64,000 nt of DNA from contig CAKOUW010000002.1 in assembly GCA_934120715.1 (NCBI GenBank), positions 78,564-142,563 on the forward strand, written 5' to 3'. Under the pieces are notes generated by a model. That model was given only the letters and a program-made list of their open reading frames with translations, ran no database searches and had not been told where the DNA came from. The translations under genes and the position numbers were made by a program. The stretch's first letter is position 1. Each line of letters opens with the position of its first letter. The DNA comes from an uncultured Bacilli bacterium. GTDB taxonomy: Bacteria; Bacillota_I; Bacilli_A; RF39; UBA660. Below are positions 44,153-53,036 of this stretch, piece after piece.

Positions 44153-44531
44153 GGGGCTGATTAGGTTTCGACGGGAATATTAGAGCGCAGATGGCAAGTC
44201 GATTGCTCACGTAATGAGCACAAAAAAATAAACGCAAATAAAGTTAAAAACGCAGTAGCTAATTTGTTTGGTGGAAACCAAGCAGTTGCTTTTGCCTAAT
44301 AATATAAGGCCTGCACTTTTTTCAATTTTTATCTAGGAAATTGGAAGAGGTTCATTTTTACTAGATTATAGTTATCTTTTGTCTTGAAGATAAACTGAAC
44401 TTAATAGACTAGTATATTGTTTTGGTCGTTAACTACTTGAATGATATATGAAATTAATTAGTTAACTAAACTTGTAGAGGTTTGCGTAGCTGTATTTTCG
44501 GACAGGAGTTCGATTCTCCTCAGCTCCACCA
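44153..44531 (+). ncRNA. ssrA: tmRNA (ssrA)
   Basis: The 5' end ggggctgattaggtttcgacggg and 3' end ggacaggagttcgattctcctcagctccacca (T-arm plus CCA) are present. An internal tag ORF gca aat aaa gtt ... gct ttt gcc taa taa encodes ANKVKNAVANLFGGNQAVAFA*. An extended -10 tgatataat lies at 44134-44142. Confidence 0.85.
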
Positions 44532-44713: not shown

Positions 44714-45265
44714 ATAATTATAAGAACATATAATGGTGATAACTATAAAAATGTTGCAATACTAGGTTCATTTGGTAAACATTATGATTTAATTGTTGAT
44801 GTATCAAAAAAGTTTATAGAAAGTGGATTTAATGTGTTAGTCCCCAAAATATCAGGAATTAAAGATAAAAATAGTAGTTTTTTAATTTTAATTGGCGATA
44901 ACTCTAATAATCCTAATCAATTAGAATTAGATTATCTTAATAAATGTTTAGAAGCTGATTTGGTATATGTTTGTGACAAGGATGGTTATATTGGTACAAC
45001 GGTAGCATTTGAACTTGGCGTGTTAACTAGCTATGGTCAAGAAATCTATTTTTTAGAAAAGCCCAATGATGATTTATTTACCAGCATGATTCATCTTCAA
45101 GAAAGCACAATATGTAAACCAGAAGATTTAATTAATAAAATTAATTTACATAACGAGATTTGGAGTAGTAGAGAATGGTTTGATAAAGATGAGCGAGATG
45201 ATGAAGTGCCTTTTGCACTTACCAAAAAAAGAAATACTACTATTTATCCAAAAGTAATAAATTAA
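44714..45265 (+). CDS. nucleoside 2-deoxyribosyltransferase-like (NDT/SLOG-fold) protein; start codon unresolved
   Basis: DKDGYIGTTVAFELGVL matches the NDT-family D-x-GT-x-FE-x-G active-site motif, and VAILGSFGKHYD is Rossmann-like. The frame is open from 44672, but the first canonical start is GTG 44834. Only ATA/ATT codons follow the RBS aaaggggga. Confidence 0.45.
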   Translation: MIIRTYNGDNYKNVAILGSFGKHYDLIVDVSKKFIESGFNVLVPKISGIKDKNSSFLILIGDNSNNPNQLELDYLNKCLEADLVYVCDKDGYIGTTVAFELGVLTSYGQEIYFLEKPNDDLFTSMIHLQESTICKPEDLINKINLHNEIWSSREWFDKDERDDEVPFALTKKRNTTIYPKVIN

Positions 45266-45614
45266 TAAGTATAGTTGTAGATTACTACGACACTCGCACC
45301 AGATTGATTGATACTCGAACTTTTAATTTGAGGATAATAAATATTAACTATAAATACCGTCTAGTTTTTTAATTATTTAAGAAAGTAAAGTAATTAATTA
45401 TACGATGATTTTGATTTACAAAATATAGAAAATAGTGTATCGAAAGAAGAAAAGTAAAATAAAAAAACGGTAGCGACTATCGGAATTTAAGCCTATGGAG
45501 AATGATACTCTATCTATGAAGTAGGAATGTTGATCGGCGACGACCAATGCGAATAAAAATTTAAAATTATTTTAATTTTTATTCTTTTGTTATGCAATAA
45601 AAAGCCTCAATGAT

Positions 45615-45659
45615 AATTTTGATGATTATGTCAAAATACCTAGGAGAGTTAAATGTTAT
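45615..45659 (+). repeat. copy B of the repeated element
   Basis: aattttgatgattatgtcaaaatacctaggagagttaaatg, ~80 nt upstream of the HD-gene ATG. Confidence 0.6.
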
Positions 45660-45740
45660 AGCAAAAAGAGAACAAAGAAAAAATAGTATAATTATTTTGG
45701 TGATTGTATGTATTTATATGATAAATTATTAGGCAATAAA

Positions 45741-46374
45741 ATGTTTTTAGACACTGTAAAAAAAAATAGAAAATATTAAGTTTATAACAGACGGTAAATG
45801 GGATTGGGATCATGGACTAGGGCATTACAAACGTGTAGCTGAATATGTAAAAACAATTTTATTACAATTAGGAGCTAACGAAAGAACAGTTGATTTAGGA
45901 ATGACCGCTACGCTTTTGCATGATATTGGTTTATCAAAAGGAGATAAAATCGATCATGCTGTAGAAAGTAGTAAAATATTTATTAATTTTATTGATAAAA
46001 GTGATATTACACATTATGAAGAAGATACTTTAAGGCAGGCTATTCTTGATCACTCTAAAGGAAATAATATTCAATCTTTAATAGGATTGAGTTTGGTCCT
46101 AGCCGACAAATTAGATGTAACCTATCATAGAACCAAAAATTCTAGTATTCAAGATAAAATGAATAAGGAAATTCAAAAGATTCAAAGCGTTGATATAAGT
46201 ATTACTGATAAAAATCTTATAGTACAATATACTACTGATGATAATTTTGATATTAATATTTTAAAAGATTGGCCAAAAGCAATTACTGTTCCATATAGAG
46301 CGTCAAAATATTTAAAGAAAAATTATAGATTTATAGTTAATAATATGCAAATTGATATTTTAAACTATTTGTAA
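45741..46374 (+). pseudogene. HD-domain phosphohydrolase interrupted by a frameshift at an A9 homopolymer (45758-45766)
   Basis: ATG 45741 reads MFLDTVKKN and then hits a stop. The +1 frame continues open as ...KWDWDHGLGHYKRVAEY...TATLLHDIG (H...HD motif) to 46374. With 8 As it would be a single ~210-aa HD protein. Confidence 0.55.
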
Positions 46375-46396
46375 TATAAAGTAGGATGATGATAAT

Positions 46397-47167
46397 TTGA
46401 AAAAAAGAATAGCATTACTAGCCGATATTCATGGTAATTTAGAAGCGTTAGAGTCAATATTGGAAAATATAAAAAAACAGGATATAGATGAAATAATATG
46501 TTTAGGAGATTCAATTGGTATTGGCCCTAATTCAAAGGAATGTATAGATTTATTAATCGATAATAATGTTAAATCCGTTTTAGGTAATTATGAAATATAT
46601 TTATTAAAAGGGACAAATTTCGACTCTTCTATTGTGGGAGAGGAAAAAGAACATTATAAATGGGTTAAAGATTCATTAACTGATAGAGAAATTACTTATA
46701 TAGAAAAGTGCCCGTTTTATTATCAAATAAATATAGAATATGAACATTTAAAATTTAGTAAAAAATATATTTTCTGTCACTATTTGATTAATAGTGAAAA
46801 TAGTATTTATCCCTTTGAAAAGAATCATCTAAAAAGAGACATTAATTTGTGGAAGAAGTATAATAATGATAATATTACTTATTTTATAGGTCATCTTCAT
46901 GAATCTTTTAATGTTAATGAGGTAGATGGTATATCTGGTGATTTTATAGAAGATGATGGAGCCCTAACTAATATTGAAGTTGTTGATAGTGCTGGATGTA
47001 CAAAAGACGAATACACTTCTTACATGATTTTAGAGATTTCAAAGAATATAAGTTATTATAGGAAAAAAATTAAATATGATAGAGGAAAGTTTGTTAATAA
47101 AGTATTGAATATTGAATTTCTGGATAAGCAAAATATACTTAAATATTTTTATGGCATAGAAAAATAA
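46397..47167 (+). CDS. calcineurin-like metallophosphoesterase
   Basis: LADIHGN...CLGDSIG...GNYE...GHLHE motifs. A TTG start follows RBS aagtagga. Confidence 0.75.
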   Translation: MKKRIALLADIHGNLEALESILENIKKQDIDEIICLGDSIGIGPNSKECIDLLIDNNVKSVLGNYEIYLLKGTNFDSSIVGEEKEHYKWVKDSLTDREITYIEKCPFYYQINIEYEHLKFSKKYIFCHYLINSENSIYPFEKNHLKRDINLWKKYNNDNITYFIGHLHESFNVNEVDGISGDFIEDDGALTNIEVVDSAGCTKDEYTSYMILEISKNISYYRKKIKYDRGKFVNKVLNIEFLDKQNILKYFYGIEK

Positions 47168-47330
47168 AAGAATTAAGAAGATAATAAAGCAATGATATTA
47201 ATTTATGTATAATTGCAAAGCTATATAATTCATTTTCTATTGATTGAAATATTATTGTTATCATGGTATAATTTCCGTATAAAGTATGATATGTTAATAG
47301 AATCTATTACAGTAGGGAGAAATTATATTT

Positions 47331-49199
47331 ATGATTGAAAGTTTGGGTTTTCCTATAATTGGTTTGCTTTTTTTAATTTTAGTATCAATCATTTTCTTGA
47401 AGAGAAAGAGGTATAAAACATTTGAAAATGATATTTTTACTGTTTTACTGTTTTTTACTTTGATTATGTCAGTACTTGGAATAGTATGTACTTTAACGAT
47501 GGCTAATCGAGAAAATATTCCAATTTTTAATGAGGTGTTATGTAGAATATATGTGTTTGGGATTATTGCGTGGATGTCATTGATATTAGCGTATTCGTGG
47601 AGTTTAGGGCGTAATTTGAAGTATGAAAAGCTTTCTCAAATATTTAAGGAACGTTATATAAGAGCGTTAGTTATTTTTACTATAGTTACTTATATTGTAT
47701 CTTTATTCTATGATTTAACTTTTACATCAGCATATAATGATTCGGTATATATTATTGGAGGAGAGGGCCAATTTGCTATATATAGCTTTGTTGTAATAAT
47801 GGTTGTTAGTACTTTGTATATATTATTGGTAAAGAAGAAAAATCTTCCTTTAACAAGACGATTACCATTATTTTTCTTTGTATTCTATTTATTATTAGTT
47901 TCTATTCTTCAAATAACTGTTTATAATTTTAATGATGTAACTTATCTTTATTGTTTGTGTGTTATTGCTATATACTTTTCTATAGAAAATCCTGATGTTC
48001 AATTAATAGAACGACTTAAAGAAACAAATAAAAATACGGAGTTAGCTCTTAAGAATAGGACTGATTTTTTATTAGAAATGTCTAATGAAATAAGGACACC
48101 TCTTAATTCAATTGTTGGATTCAGTCAATCAATTATAAATGAGAAAAATATTTCTGAAGAATCTTTTAAAAATGATATTGAATATATTAATGATTCTTCA
48201 AAAGGACTATTAAATACTATAAATAATATTCGAGAATTTTCAACTATGGATGCTATAGATAATGTTGTCAATGTGGAACCATTTTCAATTAGTGATATTG
48301 TTACTGATATAGAACAATATGTAAAATCAAAATTGTATAAAGATGTTCAATTTAATGTTGATATTGATAAAGGACTTCCTAAAGTTTTGATTGGTGATAG
48401 GGGAAAAATTTTAAAGATTTTAATAGGATTAATAGGTAATAGTATAAGGTTTACGCAATCAGGTGAAATTGAATTAAAAATTGCTGGTATTAGTAAACAA
48501 GATCATATTGATATGCATTTTACGGTTAATGATACTGGTGTTGGAATGAGAAAAAATGAGCTTGAATCATTGACTAATTATCTTGGTAAGCATGATGTTG
48601 AGAATGAAATATCTAATAATAGTGTTGGTATTGGACTACTTGTTATAAAGAACTTGGTTAAACTTTTAGATGGTGAGATAACTTTTACTAGTAACTATGG
48701 AATTGGTTCTACTTTTGATGTAATAATAAAATGTAGGATTTGTGAAGATAACAAGATTATAGAAGAAGTTTTAACTAAGAAGGATAATGTTAATTATATT
48801 GATTGCTCAAAATATAGTGTTTTACTAATAGATAATGGCGATATATCTTCACGAGCAAATTATAATCTACTTAAAAAATTTAAATTTAATATTGATACTT
48901 GTAAAAGTGGATTAGAAAGTATTGAGAAAATTAAATCAGGTTCTCATTATGATTTATTAATAATAGGTAATAATAGTTTTGAACTATCTGCTGTTGAAAC
49001 AATTGAAAAGATTAAGAAGTTAAACAATTATAAAATACCTAAAGTTTTAGTTGAAATATCAAATGATATTAAATATCAAAATAAATATTTAGATGATGGA
49101 TTTACTGATTTTTTATTAAATCCAATAGATGAATTAGAACTTATAAAGTTAATAAATAAATATTTTGATGATATTGTGGGTGGTGACAATAATGTTTAA
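47331..49199 (+). CDS. membrane sensor histidine-kinase-like / pseudo-receiver hybrid with H-box His replaced by Asn
   Basis: 6-7 N-terminal TMs. The HisKA-like box LLEMSNEIRTPLNSIVGF has Asn (codon 48084-48086) where the consensus S-H-E-L-RTPL has His. HATPase_c N/G1/G2 boxes are intact. The C-terminal REC-like domain lacks the phospho-Asp (IIGNN). Confidence 0.7.
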   Translation: MIESLGFPIIGLLFLILVSIIFLKRKRYKTFENDIFTVLLFFTLIMSVLGIVCTLTMANRENIPIFNEVLCRIYVFGIIAWMSLILAYSWSLGRNLKYEKLSQIFKERYIRALVIFTIVTYIVSLFYDLTFTSAYNDSVYIIGGEGQFAIYSFVVIMVVSTLYILLVKKKNLPLTRRLPLFFFVFYLLLVSILQITVYNFNDVTYLYCLCVIAIYFSIENPDVQLIERLKETNKNTELALKNRTDFLLEMSNEIRTPLNSIVGFSQSIINEKNISEESFKNDIEYINDSSKGLLNTINNIREFSTMDAIDNVVNVEPFSISDIVTDIEQYVKSKLYKDVQFNVDIDKGLPKVLIGDRGKILKILIGLIGNSIRFTQSGEIELKIAGISKQDHIDMHFTVNDTGVGMRKNELESLTNYLGKHDVENEISNNSVGIGLLVIKNLVKLLDGEITFTSNYGIGSTFDVIIKCRICEDNKIIEEVLTKKDNVNYIDCSKYSVLLIDNGDISSRANYNLLKKFKFNIDTCKSGLESIEKIKSGSHYDLLIIGNNSFELSAVETIEKIKKLNNYKIPKVLVEISNDIKYQNKYLDDGFTDFLLNPIDELELIKLINKYFDDIVGGDNNV

Positions 49200-51012
49200 T
49201 ACAATTATATTTTCAATAAGTAATTTATTGCTGGCAATATTGTTGTTAATCGTTTATATTTTTAAAGTAAAAGAAAAAAATATTAATAATATATTATATA
49301 ATTCATTATTAATTTGCTTGATTGTAATTTTGGTAACTGAAATTGTGTCAGTATATACAATTTATAATAATCAATTATTTCCATTATTGAATGAAGTGAT
49401 ATGTAGAATACGTGGTGTAGGTATAATTATATGGGCTATGTTAATATCCTTATATTTAATATCTTTAAGTACTAATCATAATTATGAAGAATTTAAAAAA
49501 GTGTTACATAAAAATTATTATATATTACCTATATATTTGTTAATTATAGTCTGTTTTTTCTTTTTTAAATATGACTATGTTATATTGAATGATACTGCAT
49601 ATTTAAAGGGATCTGCTAGTATATATATATTTATGTGTATTATTTTAATATCACTGTTCTGTATAATATTTATTCCAGATAGTATTTTTAGTAAGTACAG
49701 TAAAAAAATGATAGCTTTGTTTTTATTATTAGAATTAATAGTAATTTTAATGTTATCTTATACTCTTCCATATGTATATTTTGCTACAACTGTTTTAACA
49801 TTAAATACTTATATCTTGTATTTTGTAACTGAAAATCCTGATTTATATGCAATAAAACAGCTAGAAAAAGCAAATGATATTATAGAAAATCTTAATACTA
49901 GTAAGATGGACTTTTTTAATAACATTACTAATGAAATAAGATCTTCAGTTCAATCAATAGTAAATTTAAGTGATATTTTGTTAGAGAGTCCTTATGATAG
50001 AGAAAAGATTTTACCAGATGTAAATAGTATATTTTATACAGGAAATAATTTAAATGCAATTATTACGAATGTTTTAGATATATCGAAAATTGATTATGAT
50101 TTGGATTGTTTAAATGAAGAAGAATATGATTTAAAAAGTTTAATTTTAGATTTGATGGTTATGTTCGAAGAAATGAATAATAAAAATATTAATTTGAATA
50201 TTATTTGTGATGAAAATGTACCTAGAAGATATATTGGTGATAGAAATAAAATTTATAAAATTTTATTAAATTTATTGGATAATTCAATTAAATATACTTA
50301 TACTGGGAGAGTTTCATTAAAGATAGAATGCTTAGTAAAAGATAAGAATTGTTTATTAAAATTTTGTGTATCTGATACTGGTGTTGGTTTAAAAGAAAAT
50401 GAATATAATAAAGTTTTAAATGAATTGTCTGATTTAGATAAACATACGTATAATGGTAAAGAATATGTTGGACCTGGTCTTATTATTGTAAAAAAGTTTG
50501 TTGATATTATGAATGGAAAAATTACTTTTACAAGTGACTATGGTGCTGGGACAAAATTTTATGTGGAATTGCCACAAAAAATTGTTGATAATACTGTTAT
50601 TGGAACTATAAATATGGAAAATGTGATAGATTATAAAAATTATTCTTCTTTGAAAGTATTAATAGTTGATAATGGCAATTTGGATTTAAAGTTAATGAAA
50701 ACATTTTTAAATCCTTATAAGTTTAGCGTTGATACTTCGTTAAGTGTTAAAGATTTCATTTATAAGATAAAACAAGGTAATAGATATGCTCTTATATTTA
50801 TTGATCAAATGATGTTAAAAGAGGATGATATAGAATTAATAGAAGTATTGGAAAAATTGTCTGATATTTTTGTAATTCCTCCAATAATAGTTTTAACATC
50901 TGATTATTTTATGTTGCAGCATGATAAGAAAAAATTTATATGTGATTCTTTGATGAAGCCAATTAATAATATTAAATTGGATGAAATTATAACTAAGTAT
51001 CTTGATAAATAA
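49192..51012 (+). CDS. paralogous membrane histidine-kinase-like / receiver hybrid, also with H-box His replaced by Asn
   Basis: Same architecture. Its H-box NNITNEIRSSVQSI has Asn at 49930-49932. HATPase_c is intact, and the C-terminal REC retains the conserved D (LIFIDQMM), T/S and KP. ATG 49192 follows ggtggtga and overlaps the upstream stop. Confidence 0.7.
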   Translation: MFNTIIFSISNLLLAILLLIVYIFKVKEKNINNILYNSLLICLIVILVTEIVSVYTIYNNQLFPLLNEVICRIRGVGIIIWAMLISLYLISLSTNHNYEEFKKVLHKNYYILPIYLLIIVCFFFFKYDYVILNDTAYLKGSASIYIFMCIILISLFCIIFIPDSIFSKYSKKMIALFLLLELIVILMLSYTLPYVYFATTVLTLNTYILYFVTENPDLYAIKQLEKANDIIENLNTSKMDFFNNITNEIRSSVQSIVNLSDILLESPYDREKILPDVNSIFYTGNNLNAIITNVLDISKIDYDLDCLNEEEYDLKSLILDLMVMFEEMNNKNINLNIICDENVPRRYIGDRNKIYKILLNLLDNSIKYTYTGRVSLKIECLVKDKNCLLKFCVSDTGVGLKENEYNKVLNELSDLDKHTYNGKEYVGPGLIIVKKFVDIMNGKITFTSDYGAGTKFYVELPQKIVDNTVIGTINMENVIDYKNYSSLKVLIVDNGNLDLKLMKTFLNPYKFSVDTSLSVKDFIYKIKQGNRYALIFIDQMMLKEDDIELIEVLEKLSDIFVIPPIIVLTSDYFMLQHDKKKFICDSLMKPINNIKLDEIITKYLDK

Positions 51013-51106
51013 TGAAATTTTAGAGGGTTATGAGTAATAACCTTTTTAATTTGGATTACTAGTATTTATATAGGCTTTTTTGCATAATATTATCATGGAG
51101 GTATTT

Positions 51107-51712
51107 ATGTATCAGTTGTCTATATTACCATATTCTTTTCAAGAATTAGAACCTTTTATTGATACGCATACTATGGGGCTACATTATCATAAACATGAAA
51201 TGGCATATTTAAATAATTTAAATAATTTGTTAAAGAAGTATAACTATAATTATCGTTATAGTCTTAATGATCTTGTTTATCATATTAATGAATTTAATGA
51301 CGATGATAAGCCTAATATTTTATTTAATCTTGGTGGTGTATTAAATCATGAACTGTATTGGAAGAGTATGAATAAAAATAGTAATTTACCTAAGGGGAAA
51401 TTAAAAAATAAGATAGATAGCCAATATGGTGATTTTAATAATTTTTGGAATGAGTTTAAGAAAATGGCTTTATCTTTAAAGGGCTCCGGTTATACATTTT
51501 TAGTATTAAGAAAAGATGGTAATTTGGAGATAGTTAATTTTTATAATCAGGATATTCCTTTATTGTATGGGTATATTCCATTATTTAATATTGATTTGTG
51601 GGAACATGCATATTATTTAAATTATGAAAATGACAGATCTAAATATATTGATAATTTTAGAGATATTGTTGATTTTACTAATGCTAGTTTTTTATATGAT
51701 AATATGATTTAA
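51107..51712 (+). CDS. sodA: Fe/Mn-family superoxide dismutase (divergent)
   Basis: The four metal ligands are conserved (H in LHYHKH, H in NHELYW, D and H in DLWEHAYY). ATG 51107 follows ggaggt. Confidence 0.8.
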   Translation: MYQLSILPYSFQELEPFIDTHTMGLHYHKHEMAYLNNLNNLLKKYNYNYRYSLNDLVYHINEFNDDDKPNILFNLGGVLNHELYWKSMNKNSNLPKGKLKNKIDSQYGDFNNFWNEFKKMALSLKGSGYTFLVLRKDGNLEIVNFYNQDIPLLYGYIPLFNIDLWEHAYYLNYENDRSKYIDNFRDIVDFTNASFLYDNMI

Positions 51713-51803
51713 TTATATATTTTAATTATTTTATTTGTACTTCACATTTTTGTGGGGTTTTTTAAATGTAAATTATGTTATAATTATATGGAGGTGATTT
51801 TAG

Positions 51804-53036
51804 GTGGATAAAATTTTGATGAATGCATTAAAAAAAGAGAGTAAGAGACAAGAAGAGAATATTGAACTTATTGCTTCAGAAAATTATGTTTCTAAAGATA
51901 TTTTAAAGTTACAGGGAAGTATTCTTACTAATAAATATGCTGAGGGGTATCCTGATAATAGATATTATGGTGGATGCCAATATATAGATATTTTTGAAAA
52001 GAAAGCAATAGAATATGTAACCAAGTTATTTAATTGTAAATTTGCTAATGTTCAACCACATTCTGGTAGTAGTGCTAATATGGCTGTTTATAGAGCTTTA
52101 ATTAATCATGGTGATAAAGTTATGGGAATGAATTTATCACATGGAGGACATTTAACTCATGGACATCCTATTAATTTTAGTGGTCTTGACTATGAGGTTG
52201 TTTCCTACAGTGTTAATGAGAAAACTGGATTAATTGATTACGATGAACTAGAAAAATTGGCTTTGTCTGAAAAGCCTAAAATGATTATAGCTGGATGTAG
52301 TGCTTATTCTAGAATAATAGACTTTAAAAAATTTAGAGAAATAGCTGATAAATGTGGAGCTTATTTAATGGTTGATATGGCCCATATTGCTGGCTTAGTG
52401 GCAGCTGGATTACATCCTAGTCCTTTTCCATATGCTGATGTTGTTACTTCTACTACGCACAAGACTTTGAGAGGCCCTCGTGGTGGAATTATTTTAACTA
52501 ATAGTCCAGAATTAATTAAAAAGATAAATAAGGTGGTTTTTCCTGGTATTCAGGGTGGCCCTTTAATGCATGTTATAGCTGCTAAAGCACAATGTTTTTA
52601 TGAGGCTTTACAGGATGATTTTATTGTTTATCAAAAACAGATTATTAAAAATATGAAAGCTTTATCTGATTGTTTAATGAAAAAAGGTGTGAAAGTAGTA
52701 TCAGATGGTACTGATAATCATTTAATTTTAGTTGATGTTAAGACTTCTTTTGGATTAACTGGTAAGGTTGCTGAAAAAGTATTAGATGATATTAATATTA
52801 CTTGTAATAAAAACACGATTCCATATGATAGTGAATCACCATTTATAACTAGTGGTATTAGAATTGGAAGTGCAGCTATGACGACTAGGGGATTAAAAGA
52901 AGATGAATTTAATTTGATCGGAGAAATTATTTATAAAAGTTTAACTAATATTGATAACTTAAAAATACAAAAAGAATGTAGGGAAGAAGTTCTTGCTTTA
53001 ACTAAAAAATTCCCAATATATAAAAGAGTAAAATAA
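51804..53036 (+). CDS. glyA: serine hydroxymethyltransferase
   Basis: IELIASEN and the PLP-Lys region [17 protein letters not shown] 51804 follows ggaggtga; an alternative ATG lies at 51819. Confidence 0.93.

Follow-up and report, generated by a model that had tools for sequence, protein, structure and literature searches.

A conserved tandem pair of seven-helix hybrid histidine kinase-like proteins without the acceptor histidine, predicted derivatives of a phosphorelay in uncultured Bacilli

Introduction

Histidine kinases without the phospho-accepting histidine are an already recognised class. They make up about 1% of HisKA domains (PMC12632262), and a handful of them have a known mode of action: DivL, RocA, PsmA and, in part, RetS. 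Here we describe a tandem pair of such proteins, encoded by ORF1 and ORF2 within a 64-kb stretch of contig CAKOUW010000002.1 from an uncultured Bacilli bacterium (this whole stretch is referred to as the window). Each protein combines a seven-transmembrane (7-TM) sensor, a HisKA-type dimerisation and histidine phosphotransfer domain (DHp), a HATPase_c catalytic and ATP-binding domain (CA) and a receiver-like domain (REC), and each has asparagine at the position of the histidine. The pair is very probably a selected, phosphotransfer-dead derivative of a phosphorelay. The missing histidine as such is not what makes the pair of interest; that is the stepwise history of the losses and the abandonment of the histidine throughout a family.

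In the Vibrio CqsS/LuxN/LuxQ-LuxU-LuxO system several multi-TM hybrid kinases with HisKA, HATPase_c and receiver domains feed one small histidine phosphotransfer protein (HPt), and the operons related to our locus are built similarly. CqsS loses the ability to dephosphorylate LuxU~P in the D618N mutant, but retains it in H194Q and in a catalytic mutant (PMC3310172). Such a drain through the receiver of a histidine-minus kinase is the activity predicted for HK2(Asn), the asparagine-bearing second kinase of the intact related operons. LuxQ was the best NCBIfam match for ORF1 and was nearly tied with TorS for ORF2, both far below threshold (best scores of 176 bits against a cut-off of 1200 for LuxQ and 170 bits against 676.5 for TorS; ArcB and BarA also matched over a long stretch and far below threshold). 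As these scores are far under every cut-off, the pair are not orthologues of LuxQ- or TorS-type kinases. Unlike in the Vibrio relay, the loss of histidine is natural and stable here and the window contains neither an HPt nor a regulator. The 7-TM sensor belongs to an unrelated narrow family, and the output protein of the relatives consists of REC and HD-GYP-like domains instead of being a sigma-54 activator. From the residues and relationships described below, the pair is judged to derive from a LuxQ/CqsS-like multistep phosphorelay and to belong by behaviour with pseudo-histidine kinases.

RetS of Pseudomonas aeruginosa, which restrains GacS, signals without autophosphorylation, acting as a sink, as a transmitter phosphatase and through DHp-DHp contact with another kinase (PMC5992135). 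The cores of RetS and GacS are among the best sequence and fold matches of our pair. The lesions are opposite, however: RetS keeps the histidine and HExxT and has a degenerate ATP domain, whereas in ORF1 and ORF2 the histidine is lost and the N, G1 and G2 boxes remain. A periplasmic sensor and two receivers are further features that set RetS apart. RocA of group A Streptococcus is a six-TM pseudokinase which acts on CovS in the membrane and does not need its own histidine (PMC7028121). It shares with the pair a multi-TM N-terminus, a DHp and a CA-like domain, and its membrane domain is the best conserved part, as in ORF1. RocA does have a histidine, lacks the CA residues and has no receiver; the likeness seen here is one of architecture.

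PsmA of Streptomyces is a hybrid histidine kinase pseudokinase in which the H-box histidine is replaced, autokinase activity is absent and the receiver Asp is dispensable (PMC12963549). The classic example of a kinase put to a new use is DivL of Caulobacter (PMC4211667), whose core is among the fold matches of the ORF2 model. Unlike our pair, the two proteins are cytoplasmic and have to do with cell polarity. The replacing residue varies in PsmA (E, D, Q, V or Y), which also lacks E-x-x-T, whereas in the ORF2 clade Asn is invariant, the E and the ATP boxes are kept and the gene is one of a tandem pair. Pseudo-receivers such as CikA and ShkA have the receiver fold, lack one residue of the active-site quintet and control the attached kinase core through contact or ligand binding (PMC12632262). 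The ORF2 model has its best fold match in ShkA, and here too the receiver-fold domains have an incomplete quintet; the kinase core of CikA and ShkA is active and gated by the pseudo-receiver, while the core described here has no acceptor histidine.

Results and Discussion

Domains and Active-Site Residues

Pfam recognises HisKA, HATPase_c and Response_reg domains in both proteins, with E-values of 3.9e-10, 6.4e-13 and 8.8e-8 in ORF1 and 4.4e-4, 6.6e-18 and 4.2e-7 in ORF2. The HATPase_c scores (49.6 bits for ORF1, 65.6 bits for ORF2) are above the gathering cut-off of 26.4, as is the ORF1 HisKA score (40.1 bits, cut-off 26.9). The ORF2 HisKA score of 20.7 bits is under the same cut-off of 26.9, and PF00512 is also missing from the precomputed Pfam list of its orthologues in lineages A-C (see below). 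Together with the 7-TM model these matches bear out the initial annotation of the locus, made from the sequence alone, which had described tandem paralogues with a multi-TM sensor, HisKA, HATPase_c and a receiver.

The same annotation had reported a His-to-Asn change in both H-boxes. In phmmer alignments with the solved kinases GacS (7z8n) and HK853, N252 of ORF1 (MSNEIRTPL) and N247 of ORF2 (ITNEIRSSV) fall exactly on the histidine of SHEIRTPL, which confirms it. In ORF1 the asparagine is followed by E-I-R-T, that is, the E-x-x-T motif is retained. The only histidines are residues 392, 396, 421 and 539 in ORF1 and residues 96, 106, 418 and 577 in ORF2, none of them in the DHp; an alternative acceptor elsewhere in the DHp helix, a possibility raised at the outset, was looked for and found in neither protein. 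Both are thus predicted to be unable to autophosphorylate on a DHp histidine.

Both CA domains have N370, D401, G403, G405, G433 and G435 or equivalent residues. ORF2 keeps 26 of the 28 family-conserved CA positions, including N, D-x-G-x-G and G-x-G, and ORF1 keeps 16. The F-box is degenerate in both. The N-box Asn, G1 (DTGVG) and most of G2, boxes which the earlier description had called intact, are in place in both. Nucleotide binding by ORF2 is predicted from its conserved CA boxes.

The ORF1 receiver had been noted to lack the phospho-accepting Asp. This position is indeed occupied by Gly546, and ORF1 is expected to be unable to accept phosphate on its receiver. D538, T569 and K589-P590 of the ORF2 receiver are in place, as reported earlier, but its DD pair reads D-N, and 18 of 35 family-conserved positions are left. 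By the five-residue definition (DD, D, T/S, K; PMC12632262) both domains are classed as pseudo-receivers. The AlphaFold2 model of ORF2 (predicted local distance difference test, pLDDT, 78.8) matches the folds of ShkA (top match), GacS, RetS, HK853 and DivL.

Orthologues and Order of the Histidine Losses

All sequences compared are metagenome assemblies of uncultured Bacilli. They include three lineages besides that of the window (lineage A). Lineage B is syntenic, has 77% (ORF1) and 75% (ORF2) identity and includes a GTDB 'uncultured Bacilli' metagenome-assembled genome (MAG). Lineage C has 59% and 57% identity, respectively. Lineage D, with 41-45% identity, is represented by three contigs, L004, L028 and L029. 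The ORF1 and ORF2 orthologues are adjacent and overlap start to stop in all of lineages A-D. The neighbour-joining tree assigns ORF1 to the first kinases (HKa/HK1) and ORF2 to the second ones (HKb/HK2) of related operons and makes their histidine losses separate events. The histidine codons of the relatives are all CAT or CAC and the asparagine codons all AAT, so that one C-to-A step separates them.

In the ORF2 clade Asn is invariant in A-D, down to 41% identity. The H-boxes read TNEIRSSV, TNEVRSSV and TNEMKSPI in A-C and TNEFRLPI, TNEIRLPI or TNEIKIPI in D, while SHEIRSPM is found in the nearest outgroup, formed by the kinase that comes second in operons L010-L017 and L025. Read from these sequences, the His-to-Asn change of the ORF2 clade predates the divergence of A-D. 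The E/D-x-x-T/N motif has a role in the transmitter phosphatase activity of HisKA proteins (PMC5992135, PMC12963549). Its last position is S in A-C and L or I in D. Since D-type HK2 has L or I there, a DHp phosphatase is unlikely as a conserved role of the ORF2 clade. The functions proposed initially (pseudokinase, scaffold or phosphatase-only partner) nevertheless belong to the right class.

The ORF1 clade has a different history. Asn is present in A and B only, while C has SHQIRNPL and D and more distant relatives have SHEIRTPL. The lineage C orthologue keeps the histidine and has a destroyed G2 box (S-I-S); its ORF2 neighbour has the N-box Asn changed to Lys and G433 to Glu. Lineages A, B and C have the receiver lesions of ORF1 in common, with Asp replaced by Gly or Ser and Lys by Asn or Ser. 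In the ORF2 receiver, A, B and C have N, S or E in place of the second Mg-binding acid, and B and C have M or V in place of the Thr. These patterns place the loss of the ORF1 receiver Asp and Lys in the common ancestor of A, B and C, with the H-box predicted to have decayed independently afterwards: His to Asn in A and B, by a recent single step from CAT to AAT confined to these two lineages, and E to Q, T to N and G2 loss in C. The ORF1 H-box pattern looks like loss of constraint, not like selection for Asn. The initial argument that the same substitution in both paralogues implies selection can accordingly be kept for ORF2, where Asn is invariant, but not for ORF1, where Asn is recent and C keeps the histidine.

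Selection Acting on the Pair

Between lineages A and B (dS about 0.5) the ratio of nonsynonymous to synonymous substitution rates (dN/dS) is 0.26 for ORF1 and for ORF2. Single domains of the pair give 0.16-0.35, with 0.28 in the Asp-less receiver of ORF1, 0.23 in the ORF2 receiver and 0.16 in the ORF2 CA, the lowest among the ORF2 domains. Within ORF1, constraint is strongest on the membrane domain (82% identity and dN/dS of 0.18 against B; 74% and 0.17 against C). Flanking genes have values of 0.06-0.21 between A and B, and the four genes of intact D-type relays have 0.16-0.31 at similar dS. As the pair falls within the range of the intact relays, its present-day constraint is ordinary for the family. 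A relaxed present-day constraint (0.26 against 0.05-0.15 in His-bearing relatives) was considered and dropped, because dS of those pairs is saturated (>1.1).

The population data agree with this. ORF1 is represented by 14 distinct full-length variants in A and 15 in B, ORF2 by 8 and 3; all are unbroken and all carry Asn. Single-base changes that create stops make up 5.6-6.2% of changes in ORF1 and ORF2, and neutral evolution to d = 0.5 should have produced about 52-57 nonsense mutations per gene, which puts the chance of staying open at ~1e-23. Lineage A is represented by identical sequence on a 314-kb metagenome scaffold, which encodes a public protein identical to ORF1, and in two other assemblies, and the AAT codon is seen in independent assemblies and in every population variant. 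A sequencing or assembly artefact or a strain-specific pseudogene is ruled out by these independent assemblies and ~40 population variants, and the survey of orthologues, which also have Asn, leads to the same conclusion with regard to strain-specific pseudogenes.

Change was faster in the past. In a Tajima-type relative-rate test, which counted unique changes since the split from lineage D, the window lineage has 96-114 changes in ORF1 against 51-68 in the D-type orthologues, and 116-120 against 52-57 in ORF2 (chi-square 20-27). This approximately twofold excess is concentrated in the ORF2 receiver (42-44 against 5-8) and in the CA domains (31 against 12-15 in that of ORF2) and is absent from the ORF2 TM domain (23-26 against 20) and DHp (13-15 against 13-14). 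The ORF2 receiver thus went through a burst of change on the branch leading to the window lineage, five to eight times the D-type value, and was constrained afterwards.

Such rates could also be expected of decaying relics of a lost phosphorelay on the way to deletion. HPt and regulator have gone from the locus, the catalytic residues have decayed in a mosaic, lineage-specific manner at about twice the D-type rate of amino-acid change, the GC content is as low as 21-25%, and a single C-to-A change in an AT-biased genome is enough for the loss of histidine. Nevertheless, we regard this explanation as very improbable. Neither ORF is broken in any of the three lineages or the ~40 variants despite the number of nonsense mutations expected since the A/B split, their dN/dS is that of intact relatives and is low even in the dead receiver of ORF1, and the histidine-less state is older than the split. 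The histidine-less state has been preserved since before A and B separated, and neither ORF1 nor ORF2 is a pseudogene. Purifying selection on both genes supports the initial view that the pair is not decaying.

Phosphorelay Operons of the Relatives

The lineage D operons contain two to four 7-TM hybrid kinases, with HK1 (His) and HK2 (Asn) as the last two, followed by an HPt, a regulator and three unknown genes. The order is HK-HK0-HK1(H)-HK2(N)-HPt-REC/HD in L004, the same with pflB-pflA in front in L028, and HK1(H)-HK2(N)-HPt-REC/HD in L029. The HPt (120 aa) has the canonical H-x-x-K-S/G-N motif (VHALKS/GN) and weak matches to Pfam Hpt and LuxU. The regulator (~530 aa) consists of REC and HD and is a weak match to HD-GYP-type cyclic di-GMP (c-di-GMP) phosphodiesterase regulators. 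D-type HK2(Asn) is close to the family consensus in both CA (27-28 of 28 conserved positions) and receiver (32-33 of 35), and thus has an intact phospho-accepting receiver next to an HPt.

Since pflB-pflA adjoins the L028 array just as it adjoins the pair in the window and in lineage B, the window pair is the positional orthologue of the end of the array. Position and phylogeny agree in making ORF1 and ORF2 the orthologues of HKa/HK1 and HKb/HK2, the two kinases that come last in a multi-kinase phosphorelay. This does not fit the initial assignment of the pair to an accessory patch: it stands where its relatives have their phosphorelay kinases, next to pflB/pflA, and the array has been trimmed.

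The rest of the relay was looked for. Local REC and HPt hidden Markov models found no HPt or REC in the other ORFs of the 64-kb window, in agreement with the initial observation that no cognate response regulator is adjacent, and the window encodes no kinase besides the pair. No HPt, regulator or further kinase was found in the available flanks of lineages B and C either. In a profile search of 5.8 billion proteins for the HPt of this lineage, none of the best 120 of 1226 matches could be assigned to lineage A, the assignment being indirect. One candidate for the lineage A HPt, P0382, was rejected as a coincidental match (tblastn).

The intact operons raise the possibility that the window pair is a phosphate sink or phosphatase partner, i.e., a signal-gated brake, of a phosphorelay encoded elsewhere. 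The ORF2 receiver would recover phosphoryl groups from an HPt or another kinase, after the manner of CqsS/LuxN reverse transfer or RetS mechanism 1, and ORF1 would be a transmitter phosphatase. D-type HK2(Asn), with its consensus receiver, is located immediately before the HPt, and in the window ORF2 retains D538, T569 and K589-P and ORF1 the N-E-x-x-T. There are precedents: histidine-minus and catalytic-minus CqsS drain LuxU~P via the receiver Asp (PMC3310172), RetS acts as both sink and transmitter phosphatase (PMC5992135), and the conserved histidine is not required for HisKA phosphatase activity (PMC12632262). We still find this role unlikely for the window pair. There is no HPt and no other REC within the 64 kb. 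The variable second Mg-binding acid of ORF2 in A-C and the replaced Thr in B and C mean that the phospho-acceptor site is not conserved in the clade, about half of the conserved receiver positions (18/35) survived the burst of change, and the E-x-x-T/N position is L or I in D-type HK2. A sink would also leave unexplained why constraint in ORF2 is strongest at the ATP site.

In the outgroup operons, ordered HPt, REC/HD, HKa, HKb, HKa is encoded at L010 3479-5359, L011 8103-9986, L013 3192-5066 and L016 8109-9986; further copies are at L017 8136-9974, L020 2337-4217 and L025 6692-8569. These HKa proteins keep the histidine, E-x-x-T and a full receiver. Their G1 box is N-x-G-x-A/V (Asp to Asn) and G2 is S-T/M/S-G, so the ATP site looks dead, while the adjoining HKb is fully canonical. 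The HKa lesion is complementary to that of HK2(Asn), which hints at divided labour between tandem partners. Differently crippled partners appear, from their active-site residues, to be the rule in these tandem arrays.

Complementary lesions of this kind, in HKa/HKb as well as in HK1 paired with an HK2(Asn) of consensus CA, could mean that ORF2 is a non-canonical kinase whose CA phosphorylates, in a heterodimer, the histidine of a second kinase, or else some other residue. The conserved overlap of start and stop and the state of the ORF2 CA (26 of 28 consensus positions and the lowest dN/dS, 0.16) are in line with this. In the window itself such a role is improbable: neither protein has a DHp histidine, there is no third kinase, the F-box is degenerate in both, and lineage C lost ATP-site residues in both proteins. 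We also found no precedent in the literature consulted for a HisKA-type CA acting on a non-histidine acceptor.

Two other genes of the related operons have unusual features. In the REC and HD-GYP-like regulator (L004 6277-7872 and its orthologues) Tyr-Tyr-Asp stands in place of the catalytic 'HD' dyad, invariantly in 11 sequences, and the GYP-type motif is HENYDGTGYP in the L010 type and HHDKYDGSGIHK in the D type. The output enzyme of the related relay may thus be catalytically altered. The last gene of the D-type operons (L004 10125-10895, L028 15924-16658 and L029 8738-9496) codes for a protein of 244-256 aa and has no counterpart in the window. The L004 product had no Pfam or NCBIfam match. 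It begins with an N-terminal membrane anchor followed by GATFAYFTA, a region which we take to resemble the signal region of TasA/camelysin-type secreted proteins.

The Seven-Helix Sensor and Its Family

The sensor of ORF1 (the N-terminal ~220 residues; aa 1-222 at 47331-47996 with the junction) is modelled by AlphaFold2 with a pLDDT of 86 and a predicted TM-score (pTM) of 0.84 as seven membrane helices, with a beta-hairpin outside the membrane (aa 129-144) and the invariant ENPD joining the sensor to the DHp helix. The domain matches no Pfam family. Its best fold matches in Foldseek are the transmembrane domains of class C G protein-coupled receptors (GPCRs; GPR156, E 1e-4, TM 0.58-0.65). These matches are weak and probably reflect a generic similarity of helical bundles.

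A search with this domain over 1.84 billion cluster representatives found 206 clusters. Among the matches listed, the 7-TM domain is always N-terminal and full-length proteins have ~600 aa. We found no paper describing this kinase family in a literature search. Of 65 full-length representatives, 42 have the histidine and 23 do not, a share that may be biased by sampling as the query was the sensor of a histidine-less protein; for HisKA domains in general the share without histidine is 0.9% (PMC12632262). The replacing residues are Gln (10), Asn, Glu and Thr (3 each), Tyr (2), Asp (1) and Lys (1), and the neighbour-joining tree implies at least five independent changes.

Some histidine-less members are orphans: L021 9935-11803, L022 9770-11572 and L023 3466-5313. 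They have Glu at the histidine position, a degenerate G2 and the receiver residues DDD-L-K, and adjoin housekeeping genes (leuS, uvrB and uvrA) in other uncultured Bacilli/'Tenericutes' MAGs. The clade of these orphans is large and strongly constrained (dN/dS of 0.13, L021 against L023).

Gene Organisation and Neighbouring DNA

The features of the locus are collected in Table 1. The translation start of ORF2 is the ATG at 49192 and not the listed TTG at 49165, as all orthologues and public gene calls agree. It overlaps the stop of ORF1 by 8 nt (ATGTTTAA), and the conservation of this overlap in lineages A-D implies translational coupling. ORF1 and ORF2 form a compact, translationally coupled two-gene operon. 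The promoter-like site in front of ORF1 was the best in a consensus scan (11/12 with TG) and is a consensus match only, of a kind not enriched over shuffles in AT-rich DNA. The terminator-like hairpin was not picked up by the consensus scan.

Table 1. Coordinates of the features of the kinase pair and its surroundings in the window.
Feature	Position	Strand	Remarks
tmRNA gene	44153-44531		
Promoter-like site upstream of ORF1	47244-47272	+	TTGAAA, 17-nt spacer, TG-extended TATAAT
Shine-Dalgarno sequence of ORF1	about 47314-47319	+	AGGGAG
ORF1	47331-49199	+	622-aa 7-TM hybrid-histidine-kinase-like predicted pseudokinase; orthologue of HKa/HK1 in related operons
ORF1 membrane sensor, aa 1-218	47331-47984	+	Seven helices; short extracytoplasmic beta-hairpin; followed by family-invariant ENPD (aa 219-222)
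ORF1 DHp (Pfam HisKA), aa 219-310	47985-48260	+	No His inside
ORF1 Asn252 codon (AAT)	48084-48086	+	Phospho-accepting His position by alignment to GacS and HK853
ORF1 CA (HATPase_c), aa 311-470	48261-48740	+	N-box Asn, G1 DTGVG and G2 SVGIGL present; F-box degenerate
ORF1 pseudo-receiver, aa 495-612	48813-49166	+	DD pair D501-N502; phospho-Asp position Gly546; S577; Lys position N597
ORF1/ORF2 overlap	49192-49199	+	8 nt
ORF2	49192-51012	+	606-aa (MFNTIIF...) 7-TM hybrid-histidine-kinase-like predicted pseudokinase; orthologue of HKb/HK2 in related operons
ORF2 Asn247 codon (AAT)	49930-49932	+	Phospho-accepting His position (I-T-N-E-I-R-S)
ORF2 CA (HATPase_c), aa 306-465	50107-50586	+	N-box Asn, G1 DTGVG, G2 YVGPGL; near family consensus
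ORF2 receiver-like domain, aa 488-604	50653-51003	+	D538, T569 and K589-P590 kept; DD pair D493-N494
Terminator-like hairpin directly 3' of ORF2	51022-51046	+	U-rich tail; RNA fold -11 kcal/mol, z = -2.98

The GC content dips to 22-25% across the region of the pair (46001-52000), compared with 28-34% in most of the window, and is 24.9% in ORF1 and 21.2% in ORF2. In 200 shuffles of such AT-rich DNA the longest stop-free run was 61 codons on average and 152 at most, so the 622- and 606-aa reading frames are not due to chance.

The pair is located ~2.8 kb downstream of the tmRNA gene, the only Rfam match over 43.5-52.5 kb, and upstream of an Fe/Mn superoxide dismutase (SOD) gene and glyA. The SOD had initially been called divergent. 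It is an ordinary Fe/Mn enzyme (Pfam 1.5e-31 and 1.9e-19), 90% identical to that of the sister lineage, with a dN/dS of 0.10.

The stretch between the tmRNA gene and the pair is wholly different between lineages. In the window (44834-47167) it holds a 143-aa ORF, an HD fragment and a metallophosphoesterase; its lineage B counterpart (L006 2035-9644) holds a serine recombinase, a Mob_Pre relaxase, an acetyltransferase, NT5C, DUF218 and an ABC transporter. It looks like an integration hot spot, beyond which the kinase pair, SOD and glyA are conserved. The HD fragment, a 157-aa ORF at 45901-46374, matches positions 29-114 of the 116-position Pfam HD model and is preceded by ~635 nt (from 45266 on) without an ORF longer than 54 aa. 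It probably represents what is left of a gene truncated at its 5' end. It was considered as a remnant of the lost REC/HD-GYP regulator and rejected (hhalign probability of 0.1%, no BLAST match).

A Possible Mode of Action

The pair has the features of pseudo-histidine kinases: the fold, a missing catalytic residue and retention by selection. It lacks what a working HisKA kinase needs, the histidine, and what a working hybrid kinase would be expected to have, as the receiver quintet is incomplete and no HPt or regulator was found. We propose that the ancestor of lineages A, B and C gave up the phosphorelay function, that residues made useless by this loss would then have decayed independently in different lineages, and that ORF1 and ORF2 subsequently settled under renewed constraint. 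In the intact operons HK2(Asn) would most likely be a partner of HK1 that has no kinase activity of its own. Its receiver could serve to drain the shared HPt, as in histidine-minus CqsS, or HK2(Asn) could supply a catalytic domain to the histidine of HK1 in a heterodimer.

For the window we suggest a ligand-sensing membrane heteromer of ORF1 and ORF2, which would signal by conformation and protein-protein contact with no phosphotransfer. ORF2 would still bind ATP, both pseudo-receivers would serve as interaction modules, and the mode of action would be similar to that of RocA, DivL and PsmA. This specific signalling mode, taken on its own, is tentative, and we hold it possible rather than probable. 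To the explanation as a whole, i.e., a selected, phosphotransfer-dead pair signalling as a membrane heteromer by conformation and contact, we assign roughly even chances.

Several points weigh against this explanation. The Asp, Thr and Lys retained in the ORF2 receiver would make some phospho-acceptance possible. The ATP site is degenerate in both lineage C proteins, so ATP binding is not universally required in the clade. The search for an HPt, a regulator or a true kinase covered the window and the flanks, and these may be encoded elsewhere in the genome. The trees are neighbour-joining trees only, and dN/dS was calculated by a simple Nei-Gojobori script on very AT-rich genes. Finally, the signalling mode is an inference, and the interaction, ligand and output that it supposes are putative.

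A wider reading can be considered, although we think it unlikely. The 7-TM family would be a breeding ground for phosphotransfer-independent receptors. The partners of the intact operons would be obligate heteromers, one subunit carrying the acceptor histidine and the other a working ATP site, and pairs in lineages like that of the window would have moved a step beyond this, relaying the signal of the 7-TM sensor via an ATP-binding pseudokinase and pseudo-receivers without any phosphoryl transfer. Divided labour in such heteromers would explain both HK1(His) with HK2(Asn) and HKa(His, dead G1/G2) with HKb. The 23 of 65 representatives without histidine, the complementary lesions in tandem partners and the constrained orphans are consistent with this reading.

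Conclusions

The pair and its relatives come from uncultured gut Bacilli, in which few signalling systems have been characterised, and the practical impact will be modest until the ligand or the output is found. The locus represents a natural series of phosphorelay dismantling in which the receptors were kept. The histidine of HK2 was the first to go and the H-box of HK1 the last. In between, in one order or the other, HPt and regulator vanished from the locus and the ORF1 receiver lost its Asp and Lys; the ORF2 receiver was remodelled on the same branch as the dismantling of the relay.

In ORF2 the ATP site is the best preserved although the acceptor histidine is gone, which poses the question of the role of nucleotide binding in pseudo-histidine kinases. 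With about one third of its lineages devoid of the histidine, this small 7-TM sensor family offers a comparative system for the repurposing of two-component proteins.

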